64,000 nucleotides of DNA from Chara braunii (lineage: Eukaryota; Plantae; Charophyceae): positions 4,039,660 to 4,103,659 of the forward strand of contig BFEA01000009.1 of assembly GCA_003427395.1 (NCBI GenBank), given 5' to 3'. The notes beneath the pieces are model-generated. The model was not told the DNA's origin and made no database searches. It saw nothing but the letters and a program-made list of their open reading frames with translations. Below are positions 36,584 to 58,800 of this stretch, one piece after another. Position 1 is the first letter of the stretch, and every line of letters starts with the position of its first letter. The position numbers and the translations under genes were made by a program.

Positions 36584-38877
36584 TTCCACTCAAAAACTCT
36601 GAAAATCGAAGGGTCTGTGGATTTCGTTGTGGTTTTGGCAGGAAAAATATCTTTAAATTGTTTTTTTTTTAAATAGATGGTGAAATAAATGCCACGCCGA
36701 TTCATCTCTACCAAGTGTGGGCCAACCGGATATGTACCTCAACTTCAGCTATTTTTCACGACCAAACGAATGTGTCGGGAAATCTGAAAATTGGACGGTC
36801 CGTAGATTTAGTCGTGATCTTTCCAGGAAAAATATTCAAACAAACAAAAAAGTCCTCTAAACCACGAAATAAATCGCAGCGGAAATTCGATGCATTTTTC
36901 ATTTTTGCCACTCCCCTGGTTCTCCCCACCGTGCTACCGTAGCCCTCTTCAACCTGTGCTACCGGTGTCGGGTGGCTGCCTACCAGCCGAATGCTCCCTT
37001 TTCTTTGATAAGAAAAAAGATTTTGCTTTGCCGCTTGTTTTTTTTTATGTTTTTGTTGAATGAATGCATGTGCCTGAGTGTGTTCGGAGAGATTTTGGGG
37101 TCTCGGCCCCATACTAACCCTTGCATGAGCTAAAAGAGTGGTCGGCACGACAGTCTCCAGCGGGGTCGCGTAGGCTGCAAAGGTCAGAGTTTTGTTAAGG
37201 GCGTGCTCTGGGAACAGAGGAAAGGGGGACGGGCTTTTGGCCAGCCAGAAATGAGGGAGCGGGGGAAGAAGAACGAGTTTGATGTCGGCAGCGGCCATTC
37301 CACTATGGGCGTACGTTGGCCACACCAAGAAGAGAGAAGCCGACTGGGAGCGCTGGAGGTAGTGAGCTCCGGGGATCGACCGAGAGCTTATTTCGGGACG
37401 GGCCGCGACGAGATTCGAACTTGCCCTGAGGAGTCACGACAGAGCCTGGCCGCGGGGCCACGTAGGCTCGGCCAGACGGATGATACAGATGGCAATCGCA
37501 AAATGCAGTGGGTTCGCTCCTCCTCGAATCTGGTGGGGCCGGCCACTCAAGCTCTAGCAAACGGAGGTCGGTTCAATTGACTAGGGGATCAAAAAGAGGG
37601 AGGCGGGGCGAACGTATGGAGAAGAAAGAGGGGGGGGATCAAGCTAGCTGAACTCTAGCTTCAAGAAACCGGAATGGCAGGAGAAAGAAAAGAGAAAAAA
37701 AAGGGGGAAACATGGCTGGATCGGACGAAGAATGGATGAACAAGAATCAAGAAACGGTTAGAACGAAGGAGCGCGCGCGTGCTCCTTCTTGATAACTGTC
37801 GGAGTTTGAAAGAGTTGAAAGGAGGGCCAGACAGGCCATACGGAAGTTGTTGGGATCGAGCGGGAACGGGAGGGCGCAACGGCATAGGCCGAAGCAAGAG
37901 AGAGTGAGGATGGGAAGATGGAATGAGGCGGGGGCAGGGAGCGAGCGAAGAAGAGAAGGTGGGATGCCTGGCGCGAAAACACACAAGCGAAGTTTGGAGG
38001 AATCCGGTGTATGTGGAAAGATCGGCGGACCCGATACACAAATATAGGGAACACTTGCCGGAGAGCGAGCGTGCACGGAAACGCATGCAAAACGGATGAA
38101 AGAGGCTCGGGATCCGAAAGGAAGGTAGAAACGAGTGATCATTGGATGCAGGAAGAGCGAGCGGGATCGCGAAGTCGGCGGGAAGCCAAAAATTTTGGGA
38201 TCAGCGCCGAAACGGAGGAAGGAAGAGCCAGAAGGAATCAAAGGAGGAAGGTGTATAAAAGAGGGGGGGGGGAGACGTGAAGAAGGGAGGCGCACGTCAG
38301 ACTTCAGTAGCGCTTGACAGCGGGCTGGCGCTCGGGCGAACGCAGGAACGAGAAGCGCGGGCGCTTACGAAACCAGCGTACTTATGCACAGACGTGGCAG
38401 CAGAACGCACTTTTGAGCAGCCTGCGAAGGTGCGCGCATGATAGGGGCGTACTCTGGCTACTCTATGCGCCCGAACAAGAGGGGAAGGATCCGCGCACGA
38501 GCTGTGCGGGAGTGGGCGGGGAAGAGCCGACGAGTCCGAGGATACCAAGGCACTCTGGTGCGAGGTAGGAGGCGGCGGTCGCGGCGTCAAGCCAGACCAG
38601 AGCGCGAGCGAGGAGGGCGAGAGGCGAGAGGGGCTCTATGTGCGAGGGGCTACGTCAGAGCGGAGTGGTCCGGCCGTGGGGGGCCATGCGTGAGAAGGAG
38701 CACGGAGGACGCTCGGCTGCGACACAGCTATCGATTCGGGCGAGGGGCGAAGGAGAACGGAGATAAGAGACAACGAAGGTGAACGTGGAGGAGGAAGGGA
38801 GAGGGGGATTCTCGTGCGTTCGCGGTCAGGGGATTCTTCGAGGGATCGTTGGTTAGGCAGGCCACAAGCTTCTCGGT

Positions 38878-39230
38878 GGGAGTTCGCTGGTTACGAGGCT
38901 CTCTTAGCTCGTCACCAGGCTCGCTGAACACAAGCTCCTCAATTGCGAGATTCTACCGGGGAGTCCGCTGGTTACGAGGCTCTCACTTAGCTCGCTGATG
39001 ACCCTGTCACCGGGTTTGCTGATTACGAGTTCCTCAATTGCGAGATTCTACCTGGGAGTCCGCTGGTTACGAGGCTCTCACTTAGCTCGCTGATGACCCT
39101 GTCGCCGGGTTTGCTGATTACGAGCTCCTCAATTGTGAGGTTCTATCTGGGAATTCGCTGGTTACCAGGTTCCCGCTTAGCTCGCTGATGAGCCTGTCAC
39201 TTGGCTCGCTGATTACGAGCTTCTCCATTG
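38878..39230 (+). repeat. 95-bp tandem repeat, 4 units, inside LTR (also 57439-57790)
   Basis: Units start 38878 (shortened), 38959, 39054, 39149; gggagtccgctggttacgaggctctcacttagctcgctgatgaccctgtc... Confidence 0.9.
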
Positions 39231-39608
39231 TGAGTACGTGCGTGAGGTTGCGTGCGACGAGTTTTGCCGTTTTCAAGTTTTTTTTTATGATCACGAGCTC
39301 ATTGGTTCCGGATTCCTCGGTCACAAGTCTCCGCGCGTTAAAAATCTGCCGCACGTGCTCATTAGTTCCGAGCTCCTCGTGGCGCTAGAGCATTACCAAC
39401 CTCTGGCGGCATTCACCAATTACGCGGTAGCAGGTGCACGCGGTGCACGTCCGCTGGGCAAGAGTTCCGGCCGGAGGGCTCCTTTTCTAGTTCGAACCTC
39501 TGAGCTCAGATTCGGCCCTGAGGGAGAAAGGGAGAAGAAGAGAGGGAGAGAGGGAACGAGAAGGGGGAGAGAGAGAGAGAGAGAGAAAGGGGGAAGGAAA
39601 AAAAAAAG

Positions 39609-40180
39609 AGTTCTGTAAAGTGTGGCGAAGGTTCCACCTCTGTTCCGGAATCCGGCTCAGTCTGGCGTGGGAACGAGGCTGATTTTCTCGACTTTCATAA
39701 AAAGTGGTAAAGGTTCAATCTCGGTCTCTGGGGTCGGTGCAGTCGGACTTGTGGGAACAGACAAGGTTTTTTTGAGTTCCGTAAAAGAGGCGCATATCCA
39801 GTCTATGTCCCTGGATTCTATACAGTCAGATTCGTGAAAAAGAAACTGTGTTTTTTTTCTTTTCTTGAGTTCTGAATAGCATGGATTTCGAGTTCTGTAA
39901 AGTGTGGCAAGGGTTCGACCTCTATTCCGGAAACCGGCACAGTCAGGCTCGTAGGAACGAGACCGATTTTCTTCTCGAACTTCATAAAAATGTGGTAAAG
40001 GTTCAATCCCTGTCTCTGCAATCGGGCGGTCTGACTTGTGGGAGCAAGCTGGTTTTTTTTCAGTCACCATCCCTGGATTCCGCACAGTCAGGTTTGTGGG
40101 CAGAAAAGTGTGGTAAACGTTCAGTCTCCGAGCGAGACTGATTTCAACCAATTATGTAGAGTGGGGTAGGGTTCCTGCAG
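39609..40180 (+). repeat. Degenerate ~80-bp repeat with ~281-bp higher-order duplication inside LTR (also 58149-58720)
   Basis: gagttctgtaaagtgtggc.a.ggtt at 39609 and 39890; recurring cagtc.g.ct.gtggg motif. Confidence 0.7.
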
Positions 40181-40381
40181 AAAAGCGTCCAGCCTCTTTT
40201 TTTTTGAGGTCGATACGTGGGGGCAAAGAGGGTCCTCTCAAGTCCCTTGGGGCAAGGTGGGTGCCCCACATAGGACCTTACGCCCGGGCTCTGTTCTTGA
40301 AGTCTGCGCAGCAGCAACAAGGGGGGGGAGCGCTTCAGTCTCCGGGGCGCCGGGTTAGACCGGAGGAAACGGCCGACAAAG

Positions 40382-40399
40382 TGGCGCCGTTGCAGGGGA
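40382..40399 (+). promoter_or_regulatory. Primer-binding site, tRNA-Asp type
   Basis: TGGCGCCGTTGCAGGGGA, one mismatch to TGGCGCCGTTGCCGGGGA, 3 nt after LTR end. Confidence 0.9.
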
Positions 40400-41964
40400 T
40401 GAGCATTCTCCCGCGGCCTCGACTGGCTCAAGGACCACGGTGTGAGAGAGGACGAGCGTGACAGGTGGTGGAGGGTACACCTTTTTTTCGGCAATCGTTT
40501 CTTCGGCAGTTTGGTTCTCGGCATCGACTTTTCCAAACGGCATTTCGGCATCGACCTTTTTCTAATGGCGTTTTCGGCCTCGAAGATCCTCGACACTTTT
40601 TCGGTTGGGGAATTGTTTTCCGTGCGGGAGGGGTTGCTGGGTTGTCTGGGAGCGAGGGACTTGGGGGGATCGGAATCTCTTGATTTTGCAGGTCCGCACC
40701 GGCCCTGCTTGCGAGGTCAGGCTCTTGCTGGGAGGTGTGATATTTTTTGTGTGTTATTTTTTAAATCCGCGAATTAAGAGGGTGAAACAGTTTGCTTGTG
40801 GGGTTTGAATAGGGGTAAAAAACAATCAAAGAGGGGGAAGAAGAGTCGTACGGGAAAATTGTGTGAGTGGGTCCGCACGTGGGGAAGAGAGAGTGGACAC
40901 TCGGGGGAGAGAGGAAAGGGGGGTTCAAGAGGGGCCAGGGACGCCGTCGGGGTTGGTCCAAAGGGAGAGGGGTTTGCCGAATATCCTCGACCCACACGGG
41001 TTGTGGACGTCACCCGCACGGGATGAACTCCAGCGAGGGAACGGGCTTCACCAGAGGGGGCTGGGTTTTCTGTTCTCGACCCACGCGGATTAAGGGAACG
41101 GAGTTCTCAAGCTGGAAGTGTTCGGGACTTGGGGGTAAGAAGGGTAGTGCTTCGAGTTCCGGGACAAAGGGTCGAGGGAACTTCAACCGTCGTTGAGAAC
41201 GAAAGGGGTGGGGGGCTAATTCGGGAAGAAGAGAAGAGAGGTGCGTGGGGCACCTTGGACGAGGAATCGGAGGCCGAGTCCTGGGTGGACCGGTGTCTAG
41301 CCGATTTCTCGGACTCGGATCTCGGGGGCTACTGGGACTACGAGAACGAATTCTGAAAAGGTCGAAGGCTACAAGGTACGTATTTAAAGTGGCCAAGCCT
41401 GAGAGACTTTCTTGCTAAAATTCTAATTCCCCACCGTTTTTTGGAGACCCCGATTAAATTATCCGATTCCGAGAGAGAAAAGAGTCAGACGATGGCGAAT
41501 AGGAAGAAGGGAACGAAGTGAGAAGAGTTCACGATACAAGGAGGAGAACGGGAGGGACTAGACAGACTAGTAATCATTGATTAATAGGCAGATAAAGTCT
41601 CGGGACCCGGGTAATTTCACGCTCGAGGTGGGCCGAGTAAGGGCGTGGTGCCAGATAGGCTAACTTAGGACTACGGGTCGGTTCGGTGGGGGACATAGGG
41701 CACGGGTATGTGACTACGGTCCGACTCCGGAGAGGGGGTTGCCACCCCTCTTCGGGGATAACCTTTGCTCGCGGCTAGTTTCTATACCTGGAAGTGGGAG
41801 GACCTCTCAACGGGGGAGGACAAAAAGGTAGCCGAGTGAGACGACGCTCCTTCTCTGGTCCATCTGATCCTGCTGAGCTCACAGGCACCTCCTCCTTGTA
41901 GGGTAGGAGTGGTCTCTCGAGTGACCAAAAGTAAGGCAAAAAGGGTCTTCTTTGATTAGAATGT

Positions 41965-42315
41965 ATGAGCTTAGAGGCGGTCCCGGAAGGGATTAGTGTG
42001 AGCAGTTACGGTGGAGTCGACGTGTGGTGCCACACCTTTCGTCTGTGGACGGGAGATTTCAACGTTGCCATTTATGTAGAGGAAGGGCAAGGTCAGCGGG
42101 AAAATTTCCTCCGTAGTTGGGAAGAGGCGGTGGGTCACTCTCGCGTGGAAAGATAGGAGTTGAGGGGATACGGTTTTAGATACTTCTACACTTTAGGATA
42201 CCGAACCTACCCTAAGGGTGGTCGACCTGCGCCGGTGATTCCGGACGCCTACCTTGACGGGTCGGACGAGTGGAGAGCACTGGTCGCGATCATAGAGGGG
42301 ATAGTGGGGGAGTAG
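41965..42315 (+). pseudogene. Accessory ORF D1 (~116 aa, one in-frame stop)
   Basis: Reads through TAG at 42154: ...LWTGDFNVAIYVEEG...SWEEAVGH...YGFRYFYTLGYRTYPKGGRPAPVIPDAYLDGS; paralog of D2. Confidence 0.8.
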
Positions 42316-42322
42316 GGAGCCT

Positions 42323-42719
42323 ATGAGCCTAAGAGTTTTGGAGGTTGAGCCAGCTGGCATTAGTGTGGGTAGTTGTGGCCCTTCTGGGGATGTAAACGTT
42401 TAGTGTTACAACTTTTATTTTGTGGACTGGAGATTTTGACATAGCACTCTATGTAGAAGAAGGGACGGATCGAGGGGAGGACTTCCTGGATAGCTGGGAA
42501 GAGGCGGTTGGCCATGCTCGGCTAAAGAGGGTACTTTTAGGAACTTACGGGATTAGGCATTTTTACACACTAGGGTGTCGAACCTTCCGACGAGGAAAGC
42601 GACCCGCCCCAACTATACCGGAGGCCTATCTCAACGGGTCGGGCGGTTGGAAGGTGTTAGTAGGGATCATCGGGGGGGTGGTCCATGGTCAGGATTCTAG
42701 AGGCGACTGGCGACGGTAA
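42323..42719 (+). pseudogene. Accessory ORF D2, tandem paralog of D1 (stop at 42401, frameshift ~42418)
   Basis: MSL...GISV...WTGDFDIALYVEEG...SWEEAVGH...YGIRHFYTLGCRTF...RPAPTIPEAYLNGS. Confidence 0.8.
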
Positions 42720-43427
42720 GATCCAAATCGAAAAGGCCGACCTCGACAAGGAGAGACAGTGTTTCAGCGTCCCTTTAGACCATCGTATGGAGGGATATTT
42801 AGCCGGGCGCGAGAGAGGCCTGAAACTCGAAAAGGGAGTTTTTCTCTGGGCGCGCTTTACTGTAGGTATTTGGGAAGGAGATCAGTGGACCAGGACTAGA
42901 CCTAGGAACGGGGTGAAGGCCCGACGAGCGACGCTTCGTGCGGAAGGCACGATCTACTTGAGTCGGGAGGCCTAGGTAGAGTACGTCACCCACTAGGCGT
43001 TAGGGCGGTATCGGGCGGACCATCAGGAGGTACGCGTGGGGCCTATTCTTAAACAGTTCTTCGAGGAGGTACCCCTTCGACACAACCTGTTGTTCCGCTT
43101 GCGAGTGACTTGTGCTCGGAACGAGGAATACCCTCGTGCTACGGGTTGCGTCCAAGCCATATTTTCATCTTACGTCTTCAGGAGAGTGTGTGGAGAGGGA
43201 GCGCGTACGAGAAGGTCGTGAAGTCTATAAGGCGAGAGAAAAGAAGAGGGTTGTCCTTTCATTCTCTTCATTGGTACTTCTCTTATTGTGTGGATAACCC
43301 GGTGCCGTACGGGGTTAGAGATGACCGGATCCGAGAACGGGTCTCTTTGGAATCGGAGCAAGAGCGTGAAGGCGGGAGAGACTACCATTACCAAAGGGTT
43401 TTTGAAGTTCGGCAAAAGGTGTTTTAG
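42685..43427 (+). pseudogene. Accessory ORF D3 (main family), disrupted
   Basis: MVR start; VFLWA...RATLRAEGTIYLSREA*; EYPRA; KVVKSI...LHWYFSYCVDNP. Confidence 0.75.
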
Positions 43428-43432
43428 CATGA

Positions 43433-44122
43433 ATGGTTCTTTTTGACAAGGACCTTGGTAAGTTTGTCGGGTCCCCTTTAGATGAGCGAGGGGTTCGTAG
43501 CTTGGTTCCAAGCAACGGGGAAGTCCCCGATTGGAGGAGGTTGCAAGGTGGAAAAATCACGGTCGGCGGGAATTTCGTGTGGATAGAGTCGGGAGAAATA
43601 AGGGTTAGAGCGACTAGGGTGCATCTCAAAGTCACTGCGATAATCTTTGTCGAGCCGGGCGATTGGTTCAAGGTCGTAGTACCCCTGGTCTTAGGCCAAG
43701 GGGGTGGGCTGGATCTATTGCTCCAAGAAGTAAGAGAAGTAAGGAGAAGGTGGATAGTGAGGACCCGGAGAGAGTTTAGCTTTGTGGCAATAAAATTAGA
43801 GCAGTTCGCCCGGACAAGCGAGCTTCCGAGGGCGAGTTATCCGTTAACCTCAAGGGCCCCGAGCTTTGTATTCTTGAGATCAAACGAGGATAGGGTAGTA
43901 AAGCTCTTGGAGAGAGGAAGAAGTTTAGGCCTACCCTTTAGGGCCCTGTGGATACTTTACACTCACTGTGTCGACCAGGGAATCCCTCCGCGAGGGAAAC
44001 TCTGGGGTATTTTCAGGAGGCTTGGGTCTCTCGAAAAGTATGTTGCCCTCTCGCCTGGGAAGTACCGCGAGTGGGTCTTCAAAACAACCACGGTAGATGG
44101 TAAGGTTTACGCTCAGCAATAG
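43433..44122 (+). CDS. Accessory ORF D4, intact 229 aa (main family)
   Basis: NFVWI...KVTAIIFVEPGDW...LVLG...LPRA...APSFVF...RVVKLL...LWILYTHCVDQGIPP. Confidence 0.8.
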   Translation: MVLFDKDLGKFVGSPLDERGVRSLVPSNGEVPDWRRLQGGKITVGGNFVWIESGEIRVRATRVHLKVTAIIFVEPGDWFKVVVPLVLGQGGGLDLLLQEVREVRRRWIVRTRREFSFVAIKLEQFARTSELPRASYPLTSRAPSFVFLRSNEDRVVKLLERGRSLGLPFRALWILYTHCVDQGIPPRGKLWGIFRRLGSLEKYVALSPGKYREWVFKTTTVDGKVYAQQ

Positions 44123-44799
44123 CGGAGTGGTAGAAACGATAGAGGTCGGTGAAGGAAGTCAGGTCTTGATTCCTAGGGACCCTCGTGTAACTCTCTACTG
44201 GATGAGTGTTGAGAATTGAGAAGGGAGAAAACATCGGAGAAGGTGCTTACATGTGGGTCAGGGCTCATCGACTCACCTGGAAGGAAGGGGTGCGAAGGGG
44301 AGGTCCGCTTCACCTGGGTCGGTTTCTCGAGGTCCAGGCTACGGTTTTCCTGGACGAGGACTCGTGGACCGAAGTTTGGAGGGGCTTAGTGACCGGCCTA
44401 GAGACTCATACGGAGTACCGCAAGTCCGCGAGGAAGGCAGCGAACGATATAGTACTAGGCAGTTACGAGGAAGGGACTTCGGTCCCTCGAGCTTCCAAGG
44501 TGCTTCACGCAGCCTTGCCCGAGTTCCTGGGGCAGTCACTCCTGCGGGACCCGAAAGGGAGAGTGGTAGAGGAACTCCGAGCCGCTCAACAATCCAGGGT
44601 GCGGACGCAAGGGCTATTTTGGCTCTACACTCGGTGTGTTGACGCTGGGGCTCCCCCTGGGGGAGAGCTAGCTCCTATACTCGAAAGGTTAAGGGAGTTT
44701 GAGGGGGTGAGAGCTCACGTTGTTGATGTCCCGTACGCCCGCCTCTTTGGGGAAGAGCAAGTGACTAACCGAAAGGGGTACGAGGCTCGGACGGGGTGA
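44097..44799 (+). pseudogene. Accessory ORF D5 (main family), frameshift near 44210
   Basis: ATG 44097 (MVRFTLS...) joins ORF 44206-44799: AYMWV...EVQATVFLDEDSW...VPRA...LPEFL...RVVEEL...LFWLYTRCVDAGAPP. Confidence 0.78.
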
Positions 44800-45549
44800 T
44801 GATAAGGGGAATTTCGGGAACTCGTTGGGCCTCGATAGAGCCTATAGAAGAGGCGGGGGAGATTGTCCACATCATGTTACCGAAAACGAGCTTGGAGGGC
44901 CCGACGCGAACCATTCAAAGAGAAGTGGCTGAAATTCGCCGAGGGAAGGCATTCGTTCGGTTGTCAGTGAATAGCGAGAAGGGGTTAGTGATCGGGGAAG
45001 CCAAGATATTCCTTTCGAAGGAAGGTCCCCTAGAGGTAGTCCGAAATTTGAAGTTGGGAGAACACCCTCTCTTAGACGTGCGAGTTGTACGACAGATTAG
45101 AGAGACTAGTGGAGGAGGTGAGGCCTCGAGAAAGGTACCGAAAGGTATATCAAGTGACATACGCAGGTTGGGAAGAGGTACCGCTATTTGTCGCCAGTAA
45201 CCCCGTAGGAGTCCCTCGTTTCATCCTCGAGCGGGTCTACCCCTCCGAAGCGGTCAAGAGGGCGGTAGAGTGTAGGATCTCGATCTTGAACCAATTTCGG
45301 TTCACTAGATCGGACCTGCACGCCCTACTATCGTGGTGCCTCCGAAACCCATACCAGGACAATTGGTCGTCACTAGACGACATGGGCTACGCCTTCGAAG
45401 GTTGGGGCCAACACGCGAGGGCGTCGACCATTTCGTGGAGGTACTTGGGGGAGATCTGTGAGGCAGGGTTAGAAGGATTGGACCCCTCGGATCTCATTCG
45501 GATCGTGATTGCGTGCCGACGAAGGAACTTGAGGCATGAGCACGCCTGA
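44799..45549 (+). pseudogene. Accessory ORF D6 (main family), one frameshift
   Basis: MIR start overlapping D5 stop (TGATG); VRLSVNSEKG...AKIFLSKEG...LGEHPL; VPRFILERVYP...LHALLSWCLRNP. Confidence 0.75.
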
Positions 45550-45730
45550 CACCGGAGAGCTAGTGGGACTAGAGAGGGTGAGGGCAGAAGTGTATAGAAT
45601 CCTGACCCTTTGTTGGGAAGAGGAGAGAAGAGCAAGGTCAGGGTCCTTGCGCAAGATCAAATTACTTGAGACAACCACGATTAAGATCTTCGACGAATTA
45701 AAGGAGGAGCTGCTATCGGGAGGAAGATAG
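45536..45730 (+). CDS. Accessory ORF D7, 64 aa, helical/charged
   Basis: ATG overlaps D6 end; stop 2 nt before D8 ATG; no motif. Confidence 0.55.
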   Translation: MSTPDTGELVGLERVRAEVYRILTLCWEEERRARSGSLRKIKLLETTTIKIFDELKEELLSGGR

Positions 45731-45732
45731 GC

Positions 45733-46083
45733 ATGAGAGCTACCTACACCTCTAATTCGATAACCTGGGAATTAGAGACGCGTGACAACGGCCCCGAGGT
45801 CGCGGTAGAAGGGGGAGGGGAACTTAGCCCAGGTCTCGGAGAGGACCAAGAGGCTCGAGCCAAGAAGGAATTCCTCGTCGAAGTCCGACGATTAGCTTTG
45901 TGGAAGAGGAGATCCTGTAGCACTTTTGCAAAGTTTTCGGTTTTTGTTAGTAAGGCGGGGGAAGTGCGATTCTCTAGGACTCGGAGGGAACCCTTGCTTG
46001 AGGTCAAGAGAAAGTTTGAGGAGGGCTCTAGGTGGCTCAGGACTCCCTTCGAATTTTTGCACCTAGTTGAGGCCCGTTTCTAG
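45733..46083 (+). CDS. Accessory ORF D8, 116 aa, unknown
   Basis: ATG 2 nt after D7 stop; FSVFVSKAG weakly recalls the family motif. Confidence 0.55.
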   Translation: MRATYTSNSITWELETRDNGPEVAVEGGGELSPGLGEDQEARAKKEFLVEVRRLALWKRRSCSTFAKFSVFVSKAGEVRFSRTRREPLLEVKRKFEEGSRWLRTPFEFLHLVEARF

Positions 46084-46214
46084 GATAGGACGGGACAATA
46101 CGAGAGAGTTTTGCAGAAGACGATACTCGACCAAGGCGAGAGAGGGCGAGGGAGGTGTGAGGACTCGTTAGCGGAGGCGGCCGAGAGATTAGCCCGGGTA
46201 AGGTAGGCCTGTCA

Positions 46215-46817
46215 ATGATTAGATACGACAGGGGGAGCCTTGTCGGGACCTTGAAAAGGGCTTGGAAGTCGGGGGCTATATATGGAGTAACCCTCCCCAA
46301 GATCAGGGAGGAAGGGGAAGCTATTACGAAGTTCTTCGAGATCTACGGGCAGAAAATGATAGTTCGTTTTTCGATAGTTTCCGAGGGAGGTACCCGCACG
46401 CGAAGGGCTGGAATCTTCATGTCTCACAACGATAGGCAGTTCTTTGTGACCGAGTTAGCAGAAGGAAAGGACCCTCTAGGTATCGCTCGAAAAGCCCTAG
46501 ACCGGCTTAGAGGGTTGAGAGGGGGGGCCGCCGAAGGACGCGTGGTAGATAGGATTGAGTACCGAGGGAGGCTAGAGATCCTGCATGCGGCTCACGGCCG
46601 GACTTGGGAAATCCCTGCTTGGGCCTACCGACTGCTCTACCCCGACGACGCGGATGTGAGGAAGGTCCTAAATAGAGGGCAAATAATTGAAAAATTTCCC
46701 CAAGGAGAGGAGAAGGAACACGAGTTATTCACCCAGTGTTGGGAGCCGCGGGAGCATACGTACTTCGAGTGGTGGGCATTAGTAGGGAAGTTCATTAAGC
46801 CTCTATTTAGAGGGTAA
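46215..46817 (+). CDS. Accessory ORF D9, intact 200 aa, closest to D6
   Basis: MIR start; VTLPK; VRFSIVSEGG...AGIFMS...EGKDPL; IPAWAYRLLYP...HELFTQCWEP. Confidence 0.78.
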   Translation: MIRYDRGSLVGTLKRAWKSGAIYGVTLPKIREEGEAITKFFEIYGQKMIVRFSIVSEGGTRTRRAGIFMSHNDRQFFVTELAEGKDPLGIARKALDRLRGLRGGAAEGRVVDRIEYRGRLEILHAAHGRTWEIPAWAYRLLYPDDADVRKVLNRGQIIEKFPQGEEKEHELFTQCWEPREHTYFEWWALVGKFIKPLFRG

Positions 46818-46826
46818 GCCGGAGAG

Positions 46827-47069
46827 GTGGATAGAGCTCTGATTAAAAGGTGTTCTCAAGAGGGAATTAAGGGCATTTTCGATCTAGAGATTGTCAACCT
46901 AGCGTTAGCAGCTTGCGAAGAGAAACGAATACGCGACTTTTGGTGGACCGTGACTAGCGAAGAATCTGAGGGTGATAGTGAGGAACATGAATCAAGTGAA
47001 GGGGAGGGAAACTCGGAAGAAGGTAACGAAGCGGAAGGACATGGTGACACTAGCGAGGAAAGCGACTAG
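46827..47069 (+). CDS. Accessory ORF D10, 80 aa with acidic tail (may be a broken gag N-terminus)
   Basis: GTG start 9 nt after D9 stop; E/S/G-rich C-terminus. Confidence 0.4.
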   Translation: MDRALIKRCSQEGIKGIFDLEIVNLALAACEEKRIRDFWWTVTSEESEGDSEEHESSEGEGNSEEGNEAEGHGDTSEESD

Positions 47070-47072
47070 AGA

Positions 47073-48850
47073 TTGGTGATAGGGTGCATGGAAAGCGAGG
47101 TGGGACTCGCCCGATCACCTAAGACCACTGGCATGGGGCGAGCCGAGGAAGATACCGAGTTAGGGGCGAGATTAAGCAAGTCAGCCGAAGGATTGACCGC
47201 GGGGATGGAAGCTATCAGTAGGACCTTAAGGAGCACGGAGGCACCCCTCGGAGAAAGAACACTGAAACAACGAACGAGTTTCGAGGAGCGTTTGCACCGG
47301 GAAGTGGAGCCACGAATACTAGTAAGAGAAAGGACGGCAGAAGCCACGAAGGGCTTCCCGGTCGAAACCCGATGGGTGGGTCAAGTGGGCGCGGAAGAGA
47401 GAGTCGGTGAGGGGCAAGAGTTCCAGCGTGATAGGGCTGGGTGTTGGGCACCGAGGAGGGGTGAAGAAGGGAGCATAAGGAGGAGGGAACTAGGAAACGA
47501 ACGACCGACAGAAATTGGGGAAGGACCACGAAGATGGGTCGGGAGAGATATCAGTTCCGCATGGATACAGGAGGAAGCGGTAGGAAGGAATATGGGAGGA
47601 TTCGGAGACGTCTAGAGGGGGGTTAGGGGCCAAGAACGCGTGTGTTGGGAACGTGAAGACCCGGGTGATAGAGGCCGCCGTGAGGAGGAACCATGGGGAC
47701 CTCCGACGGCTCGACCGCGGATGGAGGATCTGGACCCCGCTTGGTACAAACCCTACGACCCAGTGATAGATAGGTCGCCTGAAGGTGCCTACTTCCGTCG
47801 GTGTGATGACCGGCGAGTCCCCTACTACGATGTGAGCCTAGGACTAGAATCGCTCTACTTCAATGGAAGGGACAGGGCCGGGTTCGTGGTAAAATGGGAG
47901 AGTTACGCCCACCATAAGAAATTTTCGGAGAAAGAATGGATCGACCATTTTATACAACATTCGGACCCTAAACTGGACCAGGCCATTAGGGCAATATACC
48001 CGACAGATGGGAGGTGGAAAACCTTCAACAGCAGCTTATTGCGGACCTTCGCCTACAACGATTTGATCCCTACGATAGAAGGGTTGCGCTGGGTCTCGAG
48101 AGGGGAACAGAAAAGCATGGTAGCATTCACTCGAAGATTCAAACGCTTGTCGCAAGCTTTGGTAAATAGAGGGATGCTCTCGAAAGTAGACAGGTGTGTA
48201 ATGTTCATGTTGCACCTACCCGAAGAAAAGAGGAGGGAGGTTCTCGAGAGGGCCCCTAGGGACTCGGCGAATTTCGAAAGAGTCGCCGAGGTAGTCTTTA
48301 CGGGAAGGGGAGTGGACGTGCGAGAGTACATGAAGGAAAGTCTGGACATGGCACTCCGAAGTATGCGTACTCAAAGAAACGATGGTCCTCGCGGGAACGA
48401 AAGGCAGCCTCCTGAGCCTCCCGGCCAACGCTGGGGAGGAGGACCCACAGGTTGGCGGAACACGTCCGGTAACCAAGGGAACTGGAGAACGGCCGAGAAG
48501 ATGAAGGGAATCGGGTCTCAGAATGGGGGAATTCCCATTGGAAGGATGCGAGGGATGGAAGATGGGGAGACCCTCCCCAGCCTAGGGCCATGGGGACTCG
48601 CCCCGAGGTAAGCCAGGCTAGATCGCACCCACCCGGTCCTTCGGCGACCNTGGGGACGACATAACAATCCGCCACCTCGAAGCNGGTGTGTTTATTGCAA
48701 TGAAGATGGTCACNTCAAGCGGGAGTGCCCTNACCTCACGGAAGCCCTAAGGTTAGGAGTGGTGAAGTTGAATGAAAATAAGTGAGTCGTGTGGGGAGAT
48801 GATGGAGAGGCAGTCTCCTTCTACCCCTCGATGAAGATAAACGTGGACAA
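47073..48850 (+). pseudogene. gag: gag with zinc knuckle
   Basis: LYFNGRDRAGFVVKWESYA, FTRRFKRLS; CVYCNEDGHxKREC at 48687-48728. Confidence 0.88.
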
Positions 48851-49402
48851 GAGGATTGCTCTACAAGAGGCAAGGCTAGGGAAGAAGCCTAAGGTAGGCG
48901 GNACCTCTANCTCCTCCCGCGTCCAAATGACGGAGGCGCCGGGAGGCGTGTCCATAAGGGAGCCGCAGGTGTCTAACATNAANTTCGTTGAGACGAAGCC
49001 TGAAGAAGAGGGACCGTGCCTGAGAGTGAGAACTCAAATTGGGNTCGGGCCGTCTGAGAGCAAGGGAAGCTCGATAGTGGACNGAGGGAAGAGGAGTAGC
49101 GACGACGACCAACCAATGGTCGACGCTAAAACCACGGAGGAAAGGAAGGGGGAAGAACCTTTGTCACCGAAATCGCCTAGGAAGAAAGGGCCGAAGAAGT
49201 TCGAAATGAAGTGTACCTTGGACGAGATAGACACGGTTGCGCCGCTACGGAGGACTCTAATGCAGCCAATGCAATGCACTCTTTTGGAGTATTTGGCGGC
49301 CAGCAAGAGCGCTAGAGACGAGCTCTTGAGCATCACCAGGAAGGTGAGGATTCCGCTCGTGGAAGGACCGCCCGTTCCTGGGGATGNACCGCCAAGGAGG
49401 AG

Positions 49403-50100
49403 GTGCAGTCCTCTCGGATTACGATGGAGGAGCTGCCAACCAATTTCTTCTCGGAGGAAGAGGCTAGGAAATTCTATGTATTAGGGAGCGGCCAGCTCCA
49501 AGCCATGGTGAGTGGGAAGAAGATGNGAGCCCTAGTGGATAATGGGTCCGAGTCGACCGTGTGTCGGGACTCTATAGCNAGGGAACTGGGGCTAGAAGTG
49601 GATAGGGGAGTGGCCATGTCGATGGTAGTGGCGGACAACAAGCTCCAACCGGCAGAGGGGGTATGTCACAGCCCCTTNATTGAGGTCNNAGGAGTGGAAG
49701 CTACTGTCTCAATTTTCNGGTGAAAGAATGTTTTTCCNAGTTGATCCTCGGACGAACTTGGCTGAGCGCAGTCCACTCTACTAGGGTCGATCTTCCGGAC
49801 GGAAGCCAGACCCTCTCGATCCGAAGTCCGGATGGAATTCGAGTGGTCCTAAGGACAGTGGATGCTAAAGATGAGCAGAACCGCGCCAGTGTCCCAAGGA
49901 GGAGAGCAGTTCAGTCTCGAGTATATCAGGTCCGACTAGAAGAGTCCCCCTTCGCCGAGAAGGAACCCCCGGGGAGTCGGGTAGAAGTCGAGGAGATTGG
50001 AGACCAGATAATCATCGATGGGGTTGGATATGAAAAGGAGGATGAAGAAGAGGAATTCGGTGGGTGCCTAAGGCTGTATTTTTGGGTGGAATCCCTCTAG
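49403..50100 (+). pseudogene. Aspartic protease
   Basis: ALVDNGSESTV; LILGRTWL; scattered N bases. Confidence 0.85.
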
Positions 50101-50267
50101 CCGGCAGAGGTAAGAAGCATAAAATCGTAGCGGAGAAAGTGAAACCCGCTGCGGTCAGCCGGGATAGAACGGGGGAAGCCTCGATATCGGAGGAGGAGAT
50201 AGTCGATATCATCTGAAAGCGGAAGAAGACCAAAGGGCAGCGAATTACGACCGATAGGCTAGCTAAA

Positions 50268-51300
50268 ATGGACATAGGGGATGGAAACCTCACAGAACAA
50301 GAGAAGGAATATGTGGCTATGACCCTAAGGGATTGCGATAAGGCCATAGCCTTCGATGATTCGAAAAGAGGGAGGATAGACCCAAGGTACGCTAAGCCTG
50401 CCCGGATCCATACGATACCTCACGTACCGTGGAAAAACAGACGGTCGTGGAAGTATGCGCAAAAAGAGAAGGAAAAGATAGTGATCTTCATTAAAGAGAA
50501 GATAAAGACATTTGTCGCGGAACCTTGTGAGAGTGCCTACTCAAACAAGTGGTTCTTTCGGAGAAAAGGAGGTAGCAACAAACTAAGGTGGATCCAGAAT
50601 CTCCAAAGGACCAACGCGGTTACTACTCGCGGAAGGATCGGCGGGTCGCTCAATCTACTCAATCTGCGATCTCTTATCGGGCTATGATGAGATCCTCTTG
50701 GATTACCGAGATAGACACATGACCGCGATGCACACGCCTCTAGGGCTAGTTCAAATGATGGTGGTACCTATGGGGTGGACGAACGAAGTGGCGGTGTTCC
50801 AAGGAGCCATGATCGTGGTCCTCAAGGAATTCATACCGGATAAGGTAGAGGTCTTCCTTGACGACTTCCCAATAAAAGGGCCGGTCCAAAAGGATGAGAC
50901 AGAGGTCTTCCCTGGGGTAAGGAAGTTTGTGGTGAATAACATGGTAGATGTAACGGAGGTCCTCGCGAAATTAGATGACGCCAACCTTACCGTGAGTGGG
51001 ACTAAGAGTCGCTGGGGAGTATCATCGATCAAGATATTAGGCTTCATCTGTGACAAGGATGGGCGAATGCCCGATCCCGCGAAACTAAAAATATTGATGA
51101 CCTAGTCGTCGCTACTAAAGTCAATCACGGACGTGAGGCAATTTCTAAGGGTGGTGGGCTACTGAAGGATCTTTATAAAAGCCTACAGCGAGAAGGCGAA
51201 GCCCCCTAGACGACTGCTTAGGAAAGTTGAGGGATGGATCTGGGGAGAGGAGCAGGCCGCGGTCATGGAAACCCTCAAAAATGAATTCCGGGAAGGAGGA
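50268..51300 (+). pseudogene. pol: Reverse transcriptase
   Basis: LRWIQNLQRTN; AMHTPLGLVQMMVVPMGWTN; VFLDDFPIKG; internal deletion and stops. Confidence 0.92.
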
Positions 51301-51329
51301 CAAGTCTTGGGGCGTTTCGTTCTTCGAGG

Positions 51330-53325
51330 ACGAGGAGAACCGCCCATTCATAGTTTCCACGGACGCAGGACCATGATCCGTAGGAGAACTTCTGTCTCAA
51401 AAGGATCGAGATGGGAAAGAGAGACCCATGCGATTTGAGAGTTGGGCCTTGAATCCCGCCGAGAGGAGCTACAACCAATTCAAGAAAGAAGTGTTGGGGG
51501 TGTTGCACTGCCTAAAGACCTTCCGCCACTACATCTACGGGAGACGGTTCCTCCTAAGAGTGGACCAGACCGCGGTAGTCGCTGTCCTTCAAAAGGACTT
51601 CTCGCTAACCGACCCGACTATTGCTAGGTGGATGATCCATATCATGCTCTACGATTACAAGGTCGAAAGGATCTCTGGGGCCAGAGATCAGGTTGCCGAC
51701 GGGTTGTCCCGACTCCCAATCCGAGGCGAGGATTACCCGAGATTGGAGGAAGCAAGGCTAGCAATATCCAAGGATAAGATAATCCAAGTCACCGCTAACA
51801 AGGCGCAAGTAGAGGTGATGATCCGAGAGGAAGGCGAAGGCCCTAGGACGTTCTTCGCCAACCATTACGACGGAAAGTACCAAGATAAAGGGTTATACCT
51901 AGCGGGTCGAGAAGAAGGCACCGAGGTAATCAAGAGGGCGACGCTTGGGTATTGCCTACGAGGAGGACACCTCTTTAAGAGACCCACCAAGTTCGCAATC
52001 CCCATGCGGGTGCTTTGCGATCCGGAAGAAAGGAGGGCAGTCATAGAAGAGTTACACGACGGCGTCGTCGGGGGGCGTAGAGGGGTAAAAAGGACTTTTG
52101 ATAAAGTTCGCAGGCTCTATTGGTGGGATGGGCAGTACGCGGAAGTCGAAAAGTACTGTTTAACCTGTGAAGCATGCCAAAAGAGGGCGACCATCCGTTA
52201 CAAGGAACCCCTTGTACCATCGCTCCCCACCGTCTCAGGCGAAAAGGTCCACATTGATTTAGTAATCATGCCCAAAGGAATCGGCGGGCTTCAGTACATC
52301 ATTCATGCCCTCGATGACCTCACGGGATTCGTAGAAGCTAAGGTCATTAAAAAGAAGATGGTCGAGGATGTGAGTGACTTTCTCCTGGAATACATCGCAA
52401 GGTATGGGTGTGTCGGGAAGATAATCATGGATAGGGGGTCCGAGTTCCTAAGCCAAAAGGTCAAGGCAATATTGGAAAAGGCGGGGATTAAGGCGGCCTA
52501 CATGACTGCCTACCACCCCCAAAGCAATGCTCCGATCGAAAGAGGCCACCAGACGTTGGTAGATGCTTTGGCAAAATGGTGCAAGGGGTGAGATGAGCAA
52601 TGGCCAAAGTATTTGCGCTATGCAGTTTGGGCCGACAACATCACAATAATACTTGGAGTGTCACGTGGAAAACCAACATGACTAGGGGAGAGTTGTTAGA
52701 GGCGAGGATACAACAAATAGCAGAAAATCTAGACGCCGGACTTACCGACGCCGGGAAGAACATCGAGAAGGAGAGGGTGAAAGGGAAAGAAAGTTGGGAC
52801 AAGAATTTGCGGGTCCGACAAAAGCCGATAGGGACTAGTGACCTCGTCCTGATGTACGACTCATCCTTAGAAAAAACTTGGAGCAAGAAGCTAGCCACCC
52901 GGTGGATGGGGCCGTATCGGGTCTTAAAGAGACTGGATGGGGGAGCATACCTTCTTTCCAAATTGGACGGGGCTAGGTTACGGGACCCTATCGCGGCGGC
53001 TCACCTCAAAATTTTTCGATGGAGAGAGACCCTTAGGGAGGAACCAAAAAGGAAAGTAAAGGAAGCAGTCGATGCGGAGGTGGCCGCCACCCACGAGAAG
53101 GGAGACACTTCAAAGCAGGGGGCCTCTTCGCGACCACCTAAAAGGGGGTACAAGGTTCGGAGACCTCCCCAGCCAAAAACACCTAGGAAAAACAAACGGC
53201 CAAGGGAGGATGACTGTGATACTGACCAATTGGGGAAGCGTCGGATGAGAGAGAGAAGGAGCGATTTGATGAAAAGCCTTGAAGAGTCAAGTGCGAGAGA
53301 GAAGAGAGGAAGCGAAAAAAAGTGA
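51330..53325 (+). pseudogene. pol: RNase H and integrase with GPY motif
   Basis: TDAGP; ERSYNQFKKEVLGV; HDG...CEAC; HIDLV, MDRGSEF, YHPQSNAPIERGH; WMGPYRV; no chromodomain seen. Confidence 0.93.
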
Positions 53326-54111
53326 GGCGAGAGAGAAAGATGAGGAGGGGGAGACGGGTATAAAACCCCTAGAAAAGGGGGGGGGTCTATACCACGACTA
53401 GGGGAAGCTAGTGTCATAATTCCAAAGAAAGAAAGGCTAAGAAAGGATGTACCCTAGTTAGAAGAAACATGTACCATAGTTAGGAAGGAGGAAAAGATAA
53501 GGGGGGGACAGGGCTATAGTTAGGTGAAGCCACTTATAAACCGAAAAAGCGGAGGCCTGTACCATAAACCATGTAGGGAAAAAAAAGAAGGGAACGTAAT
53601 CCGATAGAGAAGGTAATGCAAACCGGGGAAAAAAAAATACGCATAACGAGTGTGTTAGGGGGAAAAGAGGGACCATTAGGTATGGGGAAAGGCATGGGAA
53701 AAGAAGGGTTACGAAAAAGCTCACGGGGACGACGAGAATTGGGGTGTGGGCTGGTTGTCGGGCGCCTGTCTACCAGTCAGATGCTCCCTTTTCTTTGATA
53801 AGAAAAAAAAAATTGCTTTGCTGCCTGCTTTTTTTTATGTTTTTGCTGAATGAATGCATGTGTCTGAATGTGTTCGGAAAGATTTTGGGGTCTCGGCCCC
53901 ATACTAACCCTTGCATGAGCTAAAGGAGTGGCCAGCACGACAGTCTCCAGCGGGGTCGCGCAGGCTGCAAAGGTCAGAGTTTTTTTAAGGGCGTGTTATG
54001 GGAACAGATGAAAGGGGAACAGGCTTTTGGCCAGCCGGAAATGAGGGAGTGGGAGAAGAAGAACGAGTTTGATGTCGGCAGCGGCCATTCCACTATGGGC
54101 GTACTTCGGCC

Positions 54112-55890
54112 CTATGAATCCCCCTCGGCGGCAGCCAAGCACGGCCGAATCCGCGGACGCGGCCAGTCCGCCGACCCCTCGGACGGGTCCGCGCTCCTTT
54201 GACGCCATGTGGCGGCCAGACGAGAAGGGGGTTGGGGATTCGGGAAGCGCCATGCGGCGGTGCAACCCCAGACCCACCCCCTCACACAAAGAAAAATGAA
54301 AAAAAGTTTAAAAAATCATTTTTTAATTGGGGGGGTTGGGCTATATTACGAGGAGAAGTNNNNNNNNNNNNNNNNNNNNNNNNNNNNNNNNNNNNNNNNN
54401 NNNNNNNNNNNNNNNNNNNNNNNNNNNNNNNNNNNNNNNNNNNNNNNNNNNNNNNNNNNNNNNNNNNNNNNNNNNNNNNNNNNNNNNNNNNNNNNNNNNN
54501 NNNNNNNNNNNNNNNNNNNNNNNNNNNNNNNNNNNNNNNNNNNNNNNNNNNNNNNNNNNNNNNNNNNNNNNNNNNNNNNNNNNNNNNNNNNNNNNNNNNN
54601 NNNNNNNNNNNNNNNNNNNNNNNNNNNNNNNNNNNNNNNNNNNNNNNNNNNNNNNNNNNNNNNNNNNNNNNNNNNNNNNNNNNNNNNNNNNNNNNNNNNN
54701 NNNNNNNNNNNNNNNNNNNNNNNNNNNNNNNNNNNNNNNNNNNNNNNNNNNNNNNNNNNNNNNNNNNNNNNNNNNNNNNNNNNNNNNNNNNNNNNNNNNN
54801 NNNNNNNNNNNNNNNNNNNNNNNNNNNNNNNNNNNNNNNNNNNNNNNNNNNNNNNNNNNNNNNNNNNNNNNNNNNNNNNNNNNNNNNNNNNNNNNNNNNN
54901 NNNNNNNNNNNNNNNNNNNNNNNNNNNNNNNNNNNNNNNNNNNNNNNNNNNNNNNNNNNNNNNNNNNNNNNNNNNNNNNNNNNNNNNNNNNNNNNNNNNN
55001 NNNNNNNNNNNNNNNNNNNNNNNNNNNNNNNNNNNNNNNNNNNNNNNNNNNNNNNNNNNNNNNNNNNNNNNNNNNNNNNNNNNNNNNNNNNNNNNNNNNN
55101 NNNNNNNNNNNNNNNNNNNNNNNNNNNNNNNNNNNNNNNNNNNNNNNNNNNNNNNNNNNNNNNNNNNNNNNNNNNNNNNNNNNNNNNNNNNNNNNNNNNN
55201 NNNNNNNNNNNNNNNNNNNNNNNNNNNNNNNNNNNNNNNNNNNNNNNNNNNNNNNNNNNNNNNNNNNNNNNNNNNNNNNNNNNNNNNNNNATTCCAAAAA
55301 AAAAAAAAAAAGGGTTGTAGGGCTTAAAATTCCCTACAACCCCTTTTTTTTTTTCCCTATGATTTAAATCAGGAAAATTCTGGTAAAATCGGGTCCACGC
55401 CACAAGTGAATTCTTATATTTATATATTCATTTACTTCTAATTTTTATTTCTAGTTCTTATATTTCAATTTATATAGAAAAGAATATTACTATGAATACA
55501 TACATATAATATGCAAATATTCTAAATAATTGTATTAATTATATGTAAATATTGTAAGTAATTACAAGCAATTACAATACAATAAATTCAATAGAGCAAA
55601 GTAAAGGAGATAGACCATTATCTAATACAATACAATGATAAATAAACAGAATCTTGTAATAGATACAATCTTAGAATAGTATGAATATTAGATATTGAAG
55701 AATATTTTATTAGAGAAATTTCTTCGTTTATTTATTCATATTGAAATCAATAGAATCTCAAATATTCTATTTTTTTTTTTTTTTTTTGATTACTAATTCA
55801 ATTCATGGATTAGGACGGCCGCGGACGCGGCCACATATGCGGCCGCCATCCGAGATCAGCCCCGCGGACGCGTCCGCGGGCGTTTCATAG
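54112..55890. mobile_element. Non-autonomous hAT-like DNA transposon spanning an assembly gap
   Basis: TIRs CTATGAATCCCCC / GGGCGTTTCATAG (11 of 13); imperfect 8-bp TSD cttcggcc / cgttggtc versus single cgttggcc in 5' LTR; subterminal ccgcggacgcg motifs at both ends. Confidence 0.72.
54360..55290. other. Assembly gap (N run)
   Basis: Continuous N run. Confidence 1.
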
Positions 55891-58800
55891 CGTTGGTCAC
55901 ACCAAGACGAGAGAAGCCGACTGGGAGCGCTGGAGGTAGTGAGCCCCGGGGATCGACCGAGAACCTATTTCGAGACGGGCCGCAACGAGGTTCGAACTTG
56001 CCCCGAGGAGTCACGACACAGCCTGGCCGCGGGGCCACGTAGGCTAGGCCAGAAGGATGATACAAATGGCGATCGCAAAATGCAATGGGTTCGCTCCTCC
56101 TCGAATCTGGTAGGGCCGGTCACTCGAGCTCTAGCAAACGGAGGTCGGTTCAATTGACTAGGGGATCAAAAAGAGGGAGGCGGGGCGAACGTATGGAGAC
56201 GAAAGAGGGGGGGGTCAAGCTAGTTGAACTCTAGCTTCAAGAAACCAGAATGGCAGGAGAAAGAAAAGAGAAAAAAAAGGGGGAAATGTGGCTGGATCGG
56301 ACGAAGAATGGATGAACAAGAAGCAAGAAACGGTTAGAAAGGAGCGCGTGATAACTGTCGCAGTTCGAAAGAGTTGAAAGGAGGGCCAGACAGGCCGTAC
56401 GAAAGTTGTTGGAATCGAGCGGGAACGGGAGGGCGCAACAGCATAGGCCGAAGCAAGAGAGAGTGAGGATGGGAAGATGGAATGAGGCGCGGGGGCAGGG
56501 AGCGAGCGAAGAAGAGAAGGTGGGATGCCTGGCGCGAAAACACGCAAGCGAAGTTTGGAGGAATCCGGTGTATGTGGAAAGATCGGCGAACCCGATATAC
56601 AAATATAGGGAACACTCACCGGAGAGCGAGCGCACGCGGGAACGCATGCAAAACGGGCGTAGGAGGTTCGGGATCCAAAAGGAACGTAGAAACGAGGGAT
56701 CATTGGGTGCAGTAAGAGTGAGCGGGATCGCGAAGTCGGCGGGAAGCTAAAAATTTTGGGATCAGCGCCAAAACGGAGGAAGGAAGAGACAAAAGGAATC
56801 AAAGGAGGAAGGTGTATAAAAGAGGGGGGAGGCGAACGTGAAGAAGGGAGGCGCATGTCAAACTTCAGTAGCGCTCGACAGCGGGTCGGCGCTCGGGCGA
56901 ACGCAGGAACGAGAAGCGCGGGCACGCGCGAAACCAGCGTACGTATGCACGGACGAGCCAGAAGAACGCACTTCTGAGTAGCCTGCGAAGGTGCGAGAGC
57001 GATAGGGGCATACTCGGGCTACTCTATGTGCCCGAACAAGCGGGGAAGGATCCGCGCACGAGCTGTGCGGGAGTGGGCGGGGAAGAGCCGACGAGTCCGA
57101 GGGTCCCAAGGCACTCTGGTGCGAGGTAGGAGGCGACGGTCGCGGCGTCAAGCCAGACCAGAGCGCAAGCGAGGAGGGCGAGAGGCGAGAGGGGCTCTAT
57201 GTGCGAGGTGCTACGTCAGAGCGGAGTGGTCCGGCCGCGGCGGGCCGTGCGTGAGAAGGAGCACGGAGGACGCTAGGCTGCGACACGGCTATCGATCCGG
57301 GCGAGGGGCGAAGGAGAAAGGAGAGAAGAGACAACGAAGGTGAACATGGAGGAGGAAGGGAGAGGGGGATTCTCGTGCGTTCGCGGTCGGGGGATTCTTC
57401 GAGGGATCGCTGGTTAGACAGGCCACAAGCTTCTCGGTGGGAGTTCGCTGGTTACGAGGCTCTCTTAGCTCGTCGCCAGGCTCGCTGAACACAAGCTCCT
57501 CAATTGCGAGATTCTACCGTGGAGTCCGCTGGTTACCAGGCTCTCACTTAGCTCGCTGATGACCCTGTCACCGGGTTTGCTGATTGCGAGTTCCTCAATT
57601 GCGAGATTCTACCTGGGAGTCCGCTGGTTACAAGGCTCTCACTTAGCTCGCTGATGACCCTGTCGCCGGGTTTGCTGATTATGAGCTCCTCAATTGTGAG
57701 GTTCTATCTGGGAATTCGCTGGTTACCAGGTTCCCGCTTAGCTCGCTGATGAGCCTGTCACTTGGCTCGCTGATTACGAGCTTCTCCATTGTGAGTACCT
57801 GCATGAGGTTGCGTGCGACGAGTTTTGCCGTTTTCAAGTTTTTTTTTATGATCACGAGCTCATTGGTTCGGGATTCCTCGGTTGCAAGTCTCCGCGCGTT
57901 AAAAATCTGCCGCACGTGCTCATTAGTTCTGAGCTCCTCATGGCGCTAGAGCATTACCAACCTCTGGCGGCATTCACCAATTACGCGGTAGCAGGCGCAC
58001 ACGGCGCACGTCCGCTGGTCAAGAGTTCCGGCCGGAGGGCTCCTCTGAGCTCAGATTCGGCCCTGAGGGAGAAAGGGAGAAGAAGAGAGGGAGAGAGGGA
58101 ACGATAAGGGAGAGAGAGAGAGAGAGAAAGGGGGAAGGAAAAAAGAAAGAGTTCTGTAAAGTGTGGCGAAGGTTCCACCTCTGTTCCGGAATCCGGCGCA
58201 GTCTGGCTCGTGGGATCGAGGCTGATTTTCTCGACTTTCATAAAAAGTGGTAAAGGTTCAATCTCGGTCTCTGGGATCGGTGCAGTCGGACTTGTGGGAA
58301 CAGTCAGGGTTTTTTTGAGTTTCGTGAAGTAGGGCGCATATCCAGTCTCTGTCCCCGGATTCTGTACAGTCAGATTCGTGGAAAAGAAACTGTGTTTTTT
58401 TTCTTTTCTTGAGTTCTGAAAAGCGTGGATTTCGAGTTCTGTAAAGTGTGGCAAGGGGTCAACCTCTATTCTGGAAACCGGCACAGTCAGGCTCGTAGGA
58501 ACGAGACCGATTTTCTTCTCGAACTTCATAAAAATGTGGTAAAGGTTCAATCCCTGTCTCTGGAACCGGGCGGTCTGACTTGTGGAGCAAGCTGGTTTTT
58601 ATTCAGTCACCGTCCCTGGATTCCGCACAGTCAGGTTCGTGGGGAGAAAAGTGTGGTAAACGTTCAGTCTCCGAGCGAGACTGATTTCAGCCAGTTCTGT
58701 AGAGTGGGGTGGGGTTCCTGCAGAAAAGCGTCCAGCCTCTGTTTTTTTGAGGTGGATACGTGAGGGTGAAGAGGGTCCTCTCGAGTCCCTTGGGGCAAGA

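Follow-up and report, generated by a model that had tools for sequence, protein, structure and literature searches.

The tandem reading frames D1 and D2 of Chara braunii are best read as duplicated accessory genes belonging to a high-copy Ty3/Gypsy LTR retrotransposon, maintained by selection in the family, broken in the present copy and likely translated as leaky-scanned first cistrons (probability roughly two in three). The pair sits inside an element of about 22 kb within the window, which denotes the whole 64,000-nucleotide stretch of DNA that was analysed, and it opens a tandem array of small genes between the primer-binding site and gag (Table 1). From the TATA box of the LTR to gag, the sense strand has been largely cleared of AUG.

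Table 1. Features of the window discussed in the text, with positions in the window.
Feature	Position	Strand	Remarks
5' LTR	36966..40378	+	TG...CA ends; self-BLAST; CCGG target-site duplication precedes
TATAAA	38254..38259	+	only one in 5' LTR; putative promoter; match at 56815 in 3' LTR
AUG-poor zone	38260..47087	+	49 ATG in 8,828 nt (5.6 per kb)
Primer-binding site	40382..40400	+	adjoins LTR
ORF0, possible decayed ORF in leader	40565..41356	+	putative; two internal stops, basic middle, acidic end
D1	41965..42315	+	about 116 codons read through; stop 42154-56; weak start context
D2	42323..42719	+	about 131 codons read through; stop 42401-03; frame break near 42410-20; weak start context
A1, main family	42685..43427	+	broken; start overlaps D2 end by 35 nt
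A2, main family	43433..44122	+	open, 229 aa
A3, main family	44097..44799	+	frame break near 44205; start inferred
B1, distant main-family member	44799..45549	+	TGATG stop-start with A3; frame break near 45110
E	45536..45730	+	64 aa; no family match
F	45733..46206	+	about 157 codons; one internal stop
B2	46215..47069	+	acidic tail; one internal stop
gag, protease, RT, RNase H, integrase	47088..53325	+	Pfam, gag relatives; broken; gag start inferred
3' LTR	53756..58901	+	assembly gap 54360-55290; CCGG follows
Second element, main-family ORFs (at least four)	9671-8859, about 8830-8045, about 7780-7150, about 6720-6224	-	

The host element is a high-copy Ty3/Gypsy LTR retrotransposon. It has two TG...CA LTRs, a CCGG target-site duplication on both flanks, a primer-binding site, which we take to be of the tRNA-Asp type, and the domain order gag-PR-RT-RH-INT as identified with Pfam. 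All 17 of the 17 longer relatives of its gag ORF are Chara braunii gene models. Membership of the Caulimoviridae was considered and rejected, as integrase and LTRs, both expected to be absent from that family, are present. Of 60 windows of 200 nt, a single one folds with z < -3; it lies at 39180 in the LTR and is adjoined by 95-nt tandem repeats that occur in both LTRs (38816-39234 and 57377-57795). The triplets most strongly depleted in the array and pol (41965-53700) include CAG and CTG, a pattern that would fit CHG methylation.

The duplication that produced D1 and D2 is old, and selection at the protein level is clear. Over an ungapped core (42043-42306 against 42420-42683), 55 of 87 residues are identical, the 88th codon being set aside for its stop, and different codons lie behind 31 of these 55 residues. 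A preliminary description of the locus had pointed to divergence at third codon positions, and this is borne out by 50 differences there against 23 and 18 at the first and second positions. It had taken the pattern as purifying selection after duplication, which also holds: pS is 0.73 and pN 0.21, giving a dN/dS of about 0.09 with dS near saturation (bootstrap pN/pS 0.20-0.41), and the signal is confined to the coding frame, the two other sense frames of the core yielding 1.45 and 1.25. Neither a dN close to dS nor a match to a host gene fragment was found. The 5' ends of the two genes are alignable as well, both proteins begin Met-Ser, and D1 contains no internal repeat. The same description had announced two tandem ORFs of about 120 aa sharing the blocks WTGDF, YVEEG, SWEEAVGH, FYTLG.RT and RPAP.IP.AYL.GS. 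All five blocks do occur in both, but neither ORF is intact here, D1 carrying one stop and D2 a stop as well as a frame break. Both genes are dead in this copy.

In the family they are retained under selection. D is carried by many diverged copies, the presence in related elements that the preliminary description had proposed as a check. In two DNA runs of one sample (X1 and X3), possibly the same sample as that of the window, 682 contigs per run fall on 41800-42900, most at 80-95 percent identity, and 607 of the 682 in X1 are below 95 percent. At the D1 stop, another letter accounts for 171.8 of a depth of 190.7 in X1 (13 contigs) and 211.4 of 238.4 in X3; at the D2 stop the corresponding values are 65.7 of 71 (5 contigs) and 87.1 of 87.1. 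Near the D2 frame break, contigs that differ in length by one base number only 1 and 4 in the two runs and make up a minority of the depth. Among the best 40 of 315 rows of copy-specific places, a listing that favours places where the family is uniform, 23 lie within D, and they distribute over codon positions 1, 2 and 3 as 10, 10 and 3. Judging from these contigs, the decay of D is recent and local and followed insertion, which agrees with the K2P divergence of 0.054 between the two LTRs (3,006 sites). The D2 stop and frame break are not assembly errors, because contigs of another study carry both: runs X5 and X6, RNA by our guess, contain contigs almost identical to this copy over 40379-43100, with 33 extra letters at 41091 and a depth that drops from the LTR into D1, D2 and A1. 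The beginning of one Chara gene model corresponds to the D1 start (78 percent identity over 63 aa), and over 37 shared residues this model is about equally far from D1 (26) and D2 (23). DNA contigs on 41800-42900 also join D1-like and D2-like parts at several offsets, hinting at subfamilies that may have other D variants or copy numbers.

D1 and D2 constitute a new small-protein family without a family or fold match. In line with the earlier statement that no known domain could be recognised, searches of Pfam on either strand, PHROGs and PDB sequences returned nothing significant for D, and Rfam gave no match. None of five candidates from a set of 5.8 billion proteins proved to be a D homolog at near length; among 3,734 longer proteins the single homolog was a Chara gene model, the only D relative found. 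Three matches among 1.84 billion representatives were rejected as chance repeats, the two inspected being LTGDF repeat matches. None of 38 pattern matches in viral contigs was accepted, prokaryote genomes gave none of 152, and the phage search yielded nothing better than E 0.3. One metagenome candidate of 290 was dismissed as a bacterial enzyme-like ORF that has LWTGDFD in common with D. The best ESM Atlas scores, 0.83 for D2 and 0.77 for A2, are leads only.

Structural modelling offers hints of a similar kind. A two-row model of D (pLDDT 42) starts with three strands and continues with a helix, a further strand and a second helix; the top row of its fold search (Z 3.9, rmsd 3.8, 77 aligned) is tied with kinase lobes. 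PC4, Pur-alpha and SpoVG chains, whose fold of beta-meander and helix binds nucleic acid, recur among the weak fold rows for both D and A2, a lead only at a pLDDT of 42; the likeness lies in the strand-strand-strand-helix order predicted for D. The A2 model has a pLDDT of 53 overall and a helical C-terminal domain (residues 149-216) at 82-90; with an E threshold of 0.001, neither viral nor PDB libraries supplied a fold match for it, the best Z being 4.8. Maximum 19-residue hydropathy is 0.62 for D1 and 1.08 for D2, and a transmembrane segment and an N-terminal glycine for myristoylation, traits of MDG1 sORF2 and the FAST fusogens, are absent from both. Our guess is that D is soluble and may bind nucleic acid or particles; we lean that way because of the positional analogy with badnavirus ORFs I and II (whose roles are treated in the available part of PMC4926197) and because of the weak fold leads. 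A role in countering silencing appears about as likely.

D1 and D2 are followed by seven further sense ORFs, so that nine precede gag in the order D1, D2, A1, A2, A3, B1, E, F, B2; several of the boundaries were placed across breaks with the guidance of other Chara gene models containing array pieces. The preliminary description had put the D pair at the head of the array. It is indeed the first of these nine, but that position may be wrong if the frame at 40565-41356 is a decayed ORF. This frame runs for about 264 codons after an ATG with just two internal stops, and its longest one-stop run of 207 codons is reached in 8 of 500 shuffles. Neighbouring cistrons are packed tightly: from D1 through B2, the stop-to-start gaps are +7, -35, +5, -26, -1 (TGATG), -14, +2 and +8 nt, and +18 nt separate the B2 stop from the likely gag start. 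None of the nine starts stands in a strong context and those of D1, D2 and B2 are weak, a set that is not significant by itself. Shine-Dalgarno-type pairing ahead of the starts is not significant (P 0.08), which gives no support to a layout derived from organelles or phages. A TURBS motif precedes just one of the nine starts, and no shunt-like stable hairpin was seen before D1 in 200-nt windows tested singly in this decayed copy.

The most telling property of the region is its scarcity of AUG. Sense ATG falls from 19.4 per kb in U3 to 5.6 between 38260 and 47087 and returns to 18.0 in gag-pol, while AGT, TAG, TGA, GAT and GTA remain common (97-148). The best change-point of ATG density is at 38150, next to the sole TATAAA of the 5' LTR at 38254, and the 3' LTR behaves likewise, dropping from 15.1 to 6.7 per kb past its TATAAA. 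Leader and array hold 36 ATG against 61 expected under a dinucleotide model (P 3e-4), and the antisense strand of the same sequence is not depleted. The depletion reaches into the proteins, with 7 Met in 1,696 codons of the array ORFs against 45 in 1,559 of gag-pol (P 8e-9) and none in the 242 codons of D1 and D2 (P 8e-4). Out of frame, the array ORFs contain 16 ATG against 33-36 under synonymous shuffling, and 0 of 2,000 shuffles went as low. For D alone the corresponding figures, 5 against 7-8 expected, are not significant (P 0.12-0.26); 3 of the 5 are followed at once by a stop. The Tyr-Val-Glu codons conserved in D1 (42074) and D2 (42451) create an ATG immediately before a stop, which under a scanning model would be a harmless start-stop mini-ORF. 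The same economy is found in other Chara copies: nine array-derived segments from seven other Chara gene models contain 3 Met in 1,262 aa, start Met excluded, compared with 124 in 4,740 for six gag-pol segments. Three of the six leader ATGs read differently in most related sequences, and of the 40 non-start ATGs left over in the zone in this copy 4 have a strong context, against 35 of 119 in gag-pol.

By analogy, this signature resembles leaky scanning of the badnavirus type at about tenfold greater length, with translation predicted from the likeness. RNA synthesis would begin just after the TATA box of the LTR and produce one long RNA for all ORFs. The weak starts of D1 and D2 would often be skipped by scanning ribosomes, with partial initiation at each, and the ribosomes passed on would scan across AUG-poor sequence to the later array ORFs and gag; reinitiation at the close stop-start junctions probably aids passage along the array. 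According to the available part of the review by Pooggin and Ryabova (PMC5902531), scanning ribosomes in RTBV and the badnaviruses leak past ORFs that contain no internal AUG, across about 900 nt in which the starts are weak and short internal ORFs are tolerated. The likeness to their ORFs I and II extends to ORFs of about 100-200 codons upstream of a capsid/RT polyprotein on one RNA (PMC5902531 and PMC4926197, as far as available), close junctions, weak starts, AUG-cleared interiors and tolerated AUG-stop mini-ORFs. The two systems differ in that the Chara element is an integrase-bearing LTR element with nine ORFs over 8.8 kb rather than two over about 900 nt, shares no sequence similarity with these viruses and shows no shunt hairpin in the 200-nt windows folded; its translation is putative. 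The difference in scale tells against the scheme in its simplest form, since 8.8 kb and nine starts exceed the 900 nt of RTBV about tenfold and gag would be starved of ribosomes if leaky scanning acted alone. The 40 non-start ATGs still present in this copy, and the out-of-frame count of D that is not significantly low, weigh on the same side.

A second, divergent Gypsy element in the same window (1 to about 10100, minus strand) bears on the same question. Its pol and the Chara relatives of the first element have about 45 percent identity, and it carries related main-family ORFs that are Met-rich, with 104 ATG against 84 expected and no clearing. Such arrays can evidently work in other ways, a further point against the scheme; and because the second element is Met-rich and undepleted, clearing is neither demanded by the proteins nor needed by every array. 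The second element has no D homolog, the best outside match standing at iE 0.4. Just before its first main-family ORF lies a nad7-like piece of about 53 codons (complex I 49-kDa subunit; PF00346, E 2e-16; about 9890-9730, minus strand), either captured organelle DNA or a later insertion. Elsewhere in the window, a direct repeat pair of 1.5 kb (13669-15167 and 26600-28090; 89 percent identical, 12.9 kb apart) likely represents the LTRs of a third element.

Several alternatives would account for part of these observations. The D genes may be real while expression of the array relies chiefly on protein-assisted reinitiation, as with TAV of CaMV, or on RNAs that are spliced or subgenomic; AUG clearing would then only protect the route to gag or have some other cause. 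The junctions, all between -35 and +8 nt and one of them TGATG, would suit coupling of stop and start as known from non-LTR elements and from TAV in CaMV (PMC5902531, as far as available), nine cistrons are long for scanning, and the array of the second element is not AUG-poor. Yet reinitiation beside a stop needs no AUG-free ORF interiors, and the clearing begins exactly at the TATA box and stops at gag. As for spliced RNAs, the listings of four RNA-type runs contain no splice junction, at a thin coverage (336 reads in X8, 1 in X9 and 12-13 contigs in X5 and X6). Among the sequencing runs listed by a run search, none with the sequence is recorded as RNA. The X8 reads over 40379-48600 come in both orientations, are mostly under 90 percent identical and may be DNA carry-over; X9 has its single read over the same interval, and X7, with 6 percent of the run read, has none on D. 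We regard this alternative as improbable. Readier to be entertained, though still on the unlikely side, is the proposal that D1 and D2 are counter-defence factors acting against silencing or methylation, their duplication reflecting an arms race with the host; it concerns function only and is compatible with the same translation scheme. Serial duplication with deep divergence across the array is consistent with it, as are the methylation pressure suggested by CAG and CTG being the most depleted triplets in pol and the suppression of RNAi by RTBV P4 and TAV described in the available part of PMC5902531. On the other hand, selection between D1 and D2 is strongly purifying rather than diversifying, and D resembles no known suppressor in Pfam, PHROGs, PDB sequences or the fold search.

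The origin of D is open to two other interpretations. D might be remotely related to the main A/B family as a paralog that was shortened, retaining an N-terminal beta-meander and helix, in which case the array would be one superfamily. Both low-confidence models open with three strands and a helix, and by eye an A-I-Y-V-E-E strand and an I-P-x-x-Y motif are about 57 residues apart in D and 57-70 in A/B. Profile comparison by hhalign, with profiles of just 2-12 rows, nevertheless assigns probabilities of only 0.57, 0.15 and 0.08 percent; the main-family HMM scores D1 at -0.4 bits, a value matched in 26 of 300 shuffles, and does not score D2; and there is no room in D for the confident helical domain of A2. 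The earlier remark that D does not resemble the main family is upheld to the extent that no profile match is significant, and a remote kinship strikes us as rather doubtful. Finally, D1 and D2 could stem from part of a host or organelle gene that the element captured, or could be non-coding repeats with a chance third-position pattern. Organelle DNA can occur in these elements, as the nad7-like piece beside the neighbouring array illustrates, but D finds no match in Pfam, the 1.84 billion representatives beyond the chance repeats, prokaryote genomes or viral contigs, and its selection is frame-specific. This last interpretation is largely refuted and has very little chance of being correct.

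Extra ORFs in plant LTR elements, and two small ORFs before gag in MDG1 elements, are already known. The available part of the account of the Drosophila MDG1/412 group (bioRxiv 10.1101/2025.03.14.642691) describes Gypsy elements with an unspliced full-length RNA and two small sense ORFs of low dN/dS ahead of gag; there sORF1 has no kinship with sORF2, which is a membrane fusogen, whereas the Chara D1 and D2 are paralogs with no transmembrane segment and seven more ORFs behind them. Among plant Gypsy elements outside the chromoviruses, Ogre, Tat and Athila reach about 24 kb with long LTRs and carry conserved extra ORFs of unknown origin, some in sense 5' of gag, and Phygy has a 4-bp NCGN target site like that of the Chara element (PMC6317226 and PMC7264820, in the parts available). 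These surveys counted ORFs of at least 250 codons, and their available parts describe no multi-gene tandem array or AUG clearing; the PMD, Transposase_28 and Athila ORF-1 domains are absent from the Chara element. Literature searches, which covered search listings and the papers cited here, turned up neither an LTR element with a multi-gene array cleared of AUG nor a description of these ORFs from Chara, and PMC10508981 does not mention Chara.

LTR retrotransposons are thought to need little beyond gag and pol, and the value of D1 and D2 lies in the layout they open, in an element that holds several new protein families. To the question of how gag is translated behind 5' extra ORFs, the 8.8-kb AUG-cleared zone from promoter to gag offers a measurable answer. 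The element provides a test, set up by nature, of the distance over which eukaryotic ribosomes can scan, and a sister element with related ORFs and no clearing serves as its built-in control. Screening other large retroelements for AUG depletion could be an easy way to uncover polycistronic arrays hidden in them. More tentatively, and at somewhat less than even odds, a charophyte Gypsy lineage may have evolved an operon-like accessory genome of nine cistrons, expressed from one capped RNA by AUG-cleared scanning over about 9 kb, beyond anything in plant pararetroviruses, with D1 and D2 as a new family at its front for packaging, cell-to-cell spread or defence suppression. Complexity of the pararetrovirus style would then have been reached independently in this lineage.
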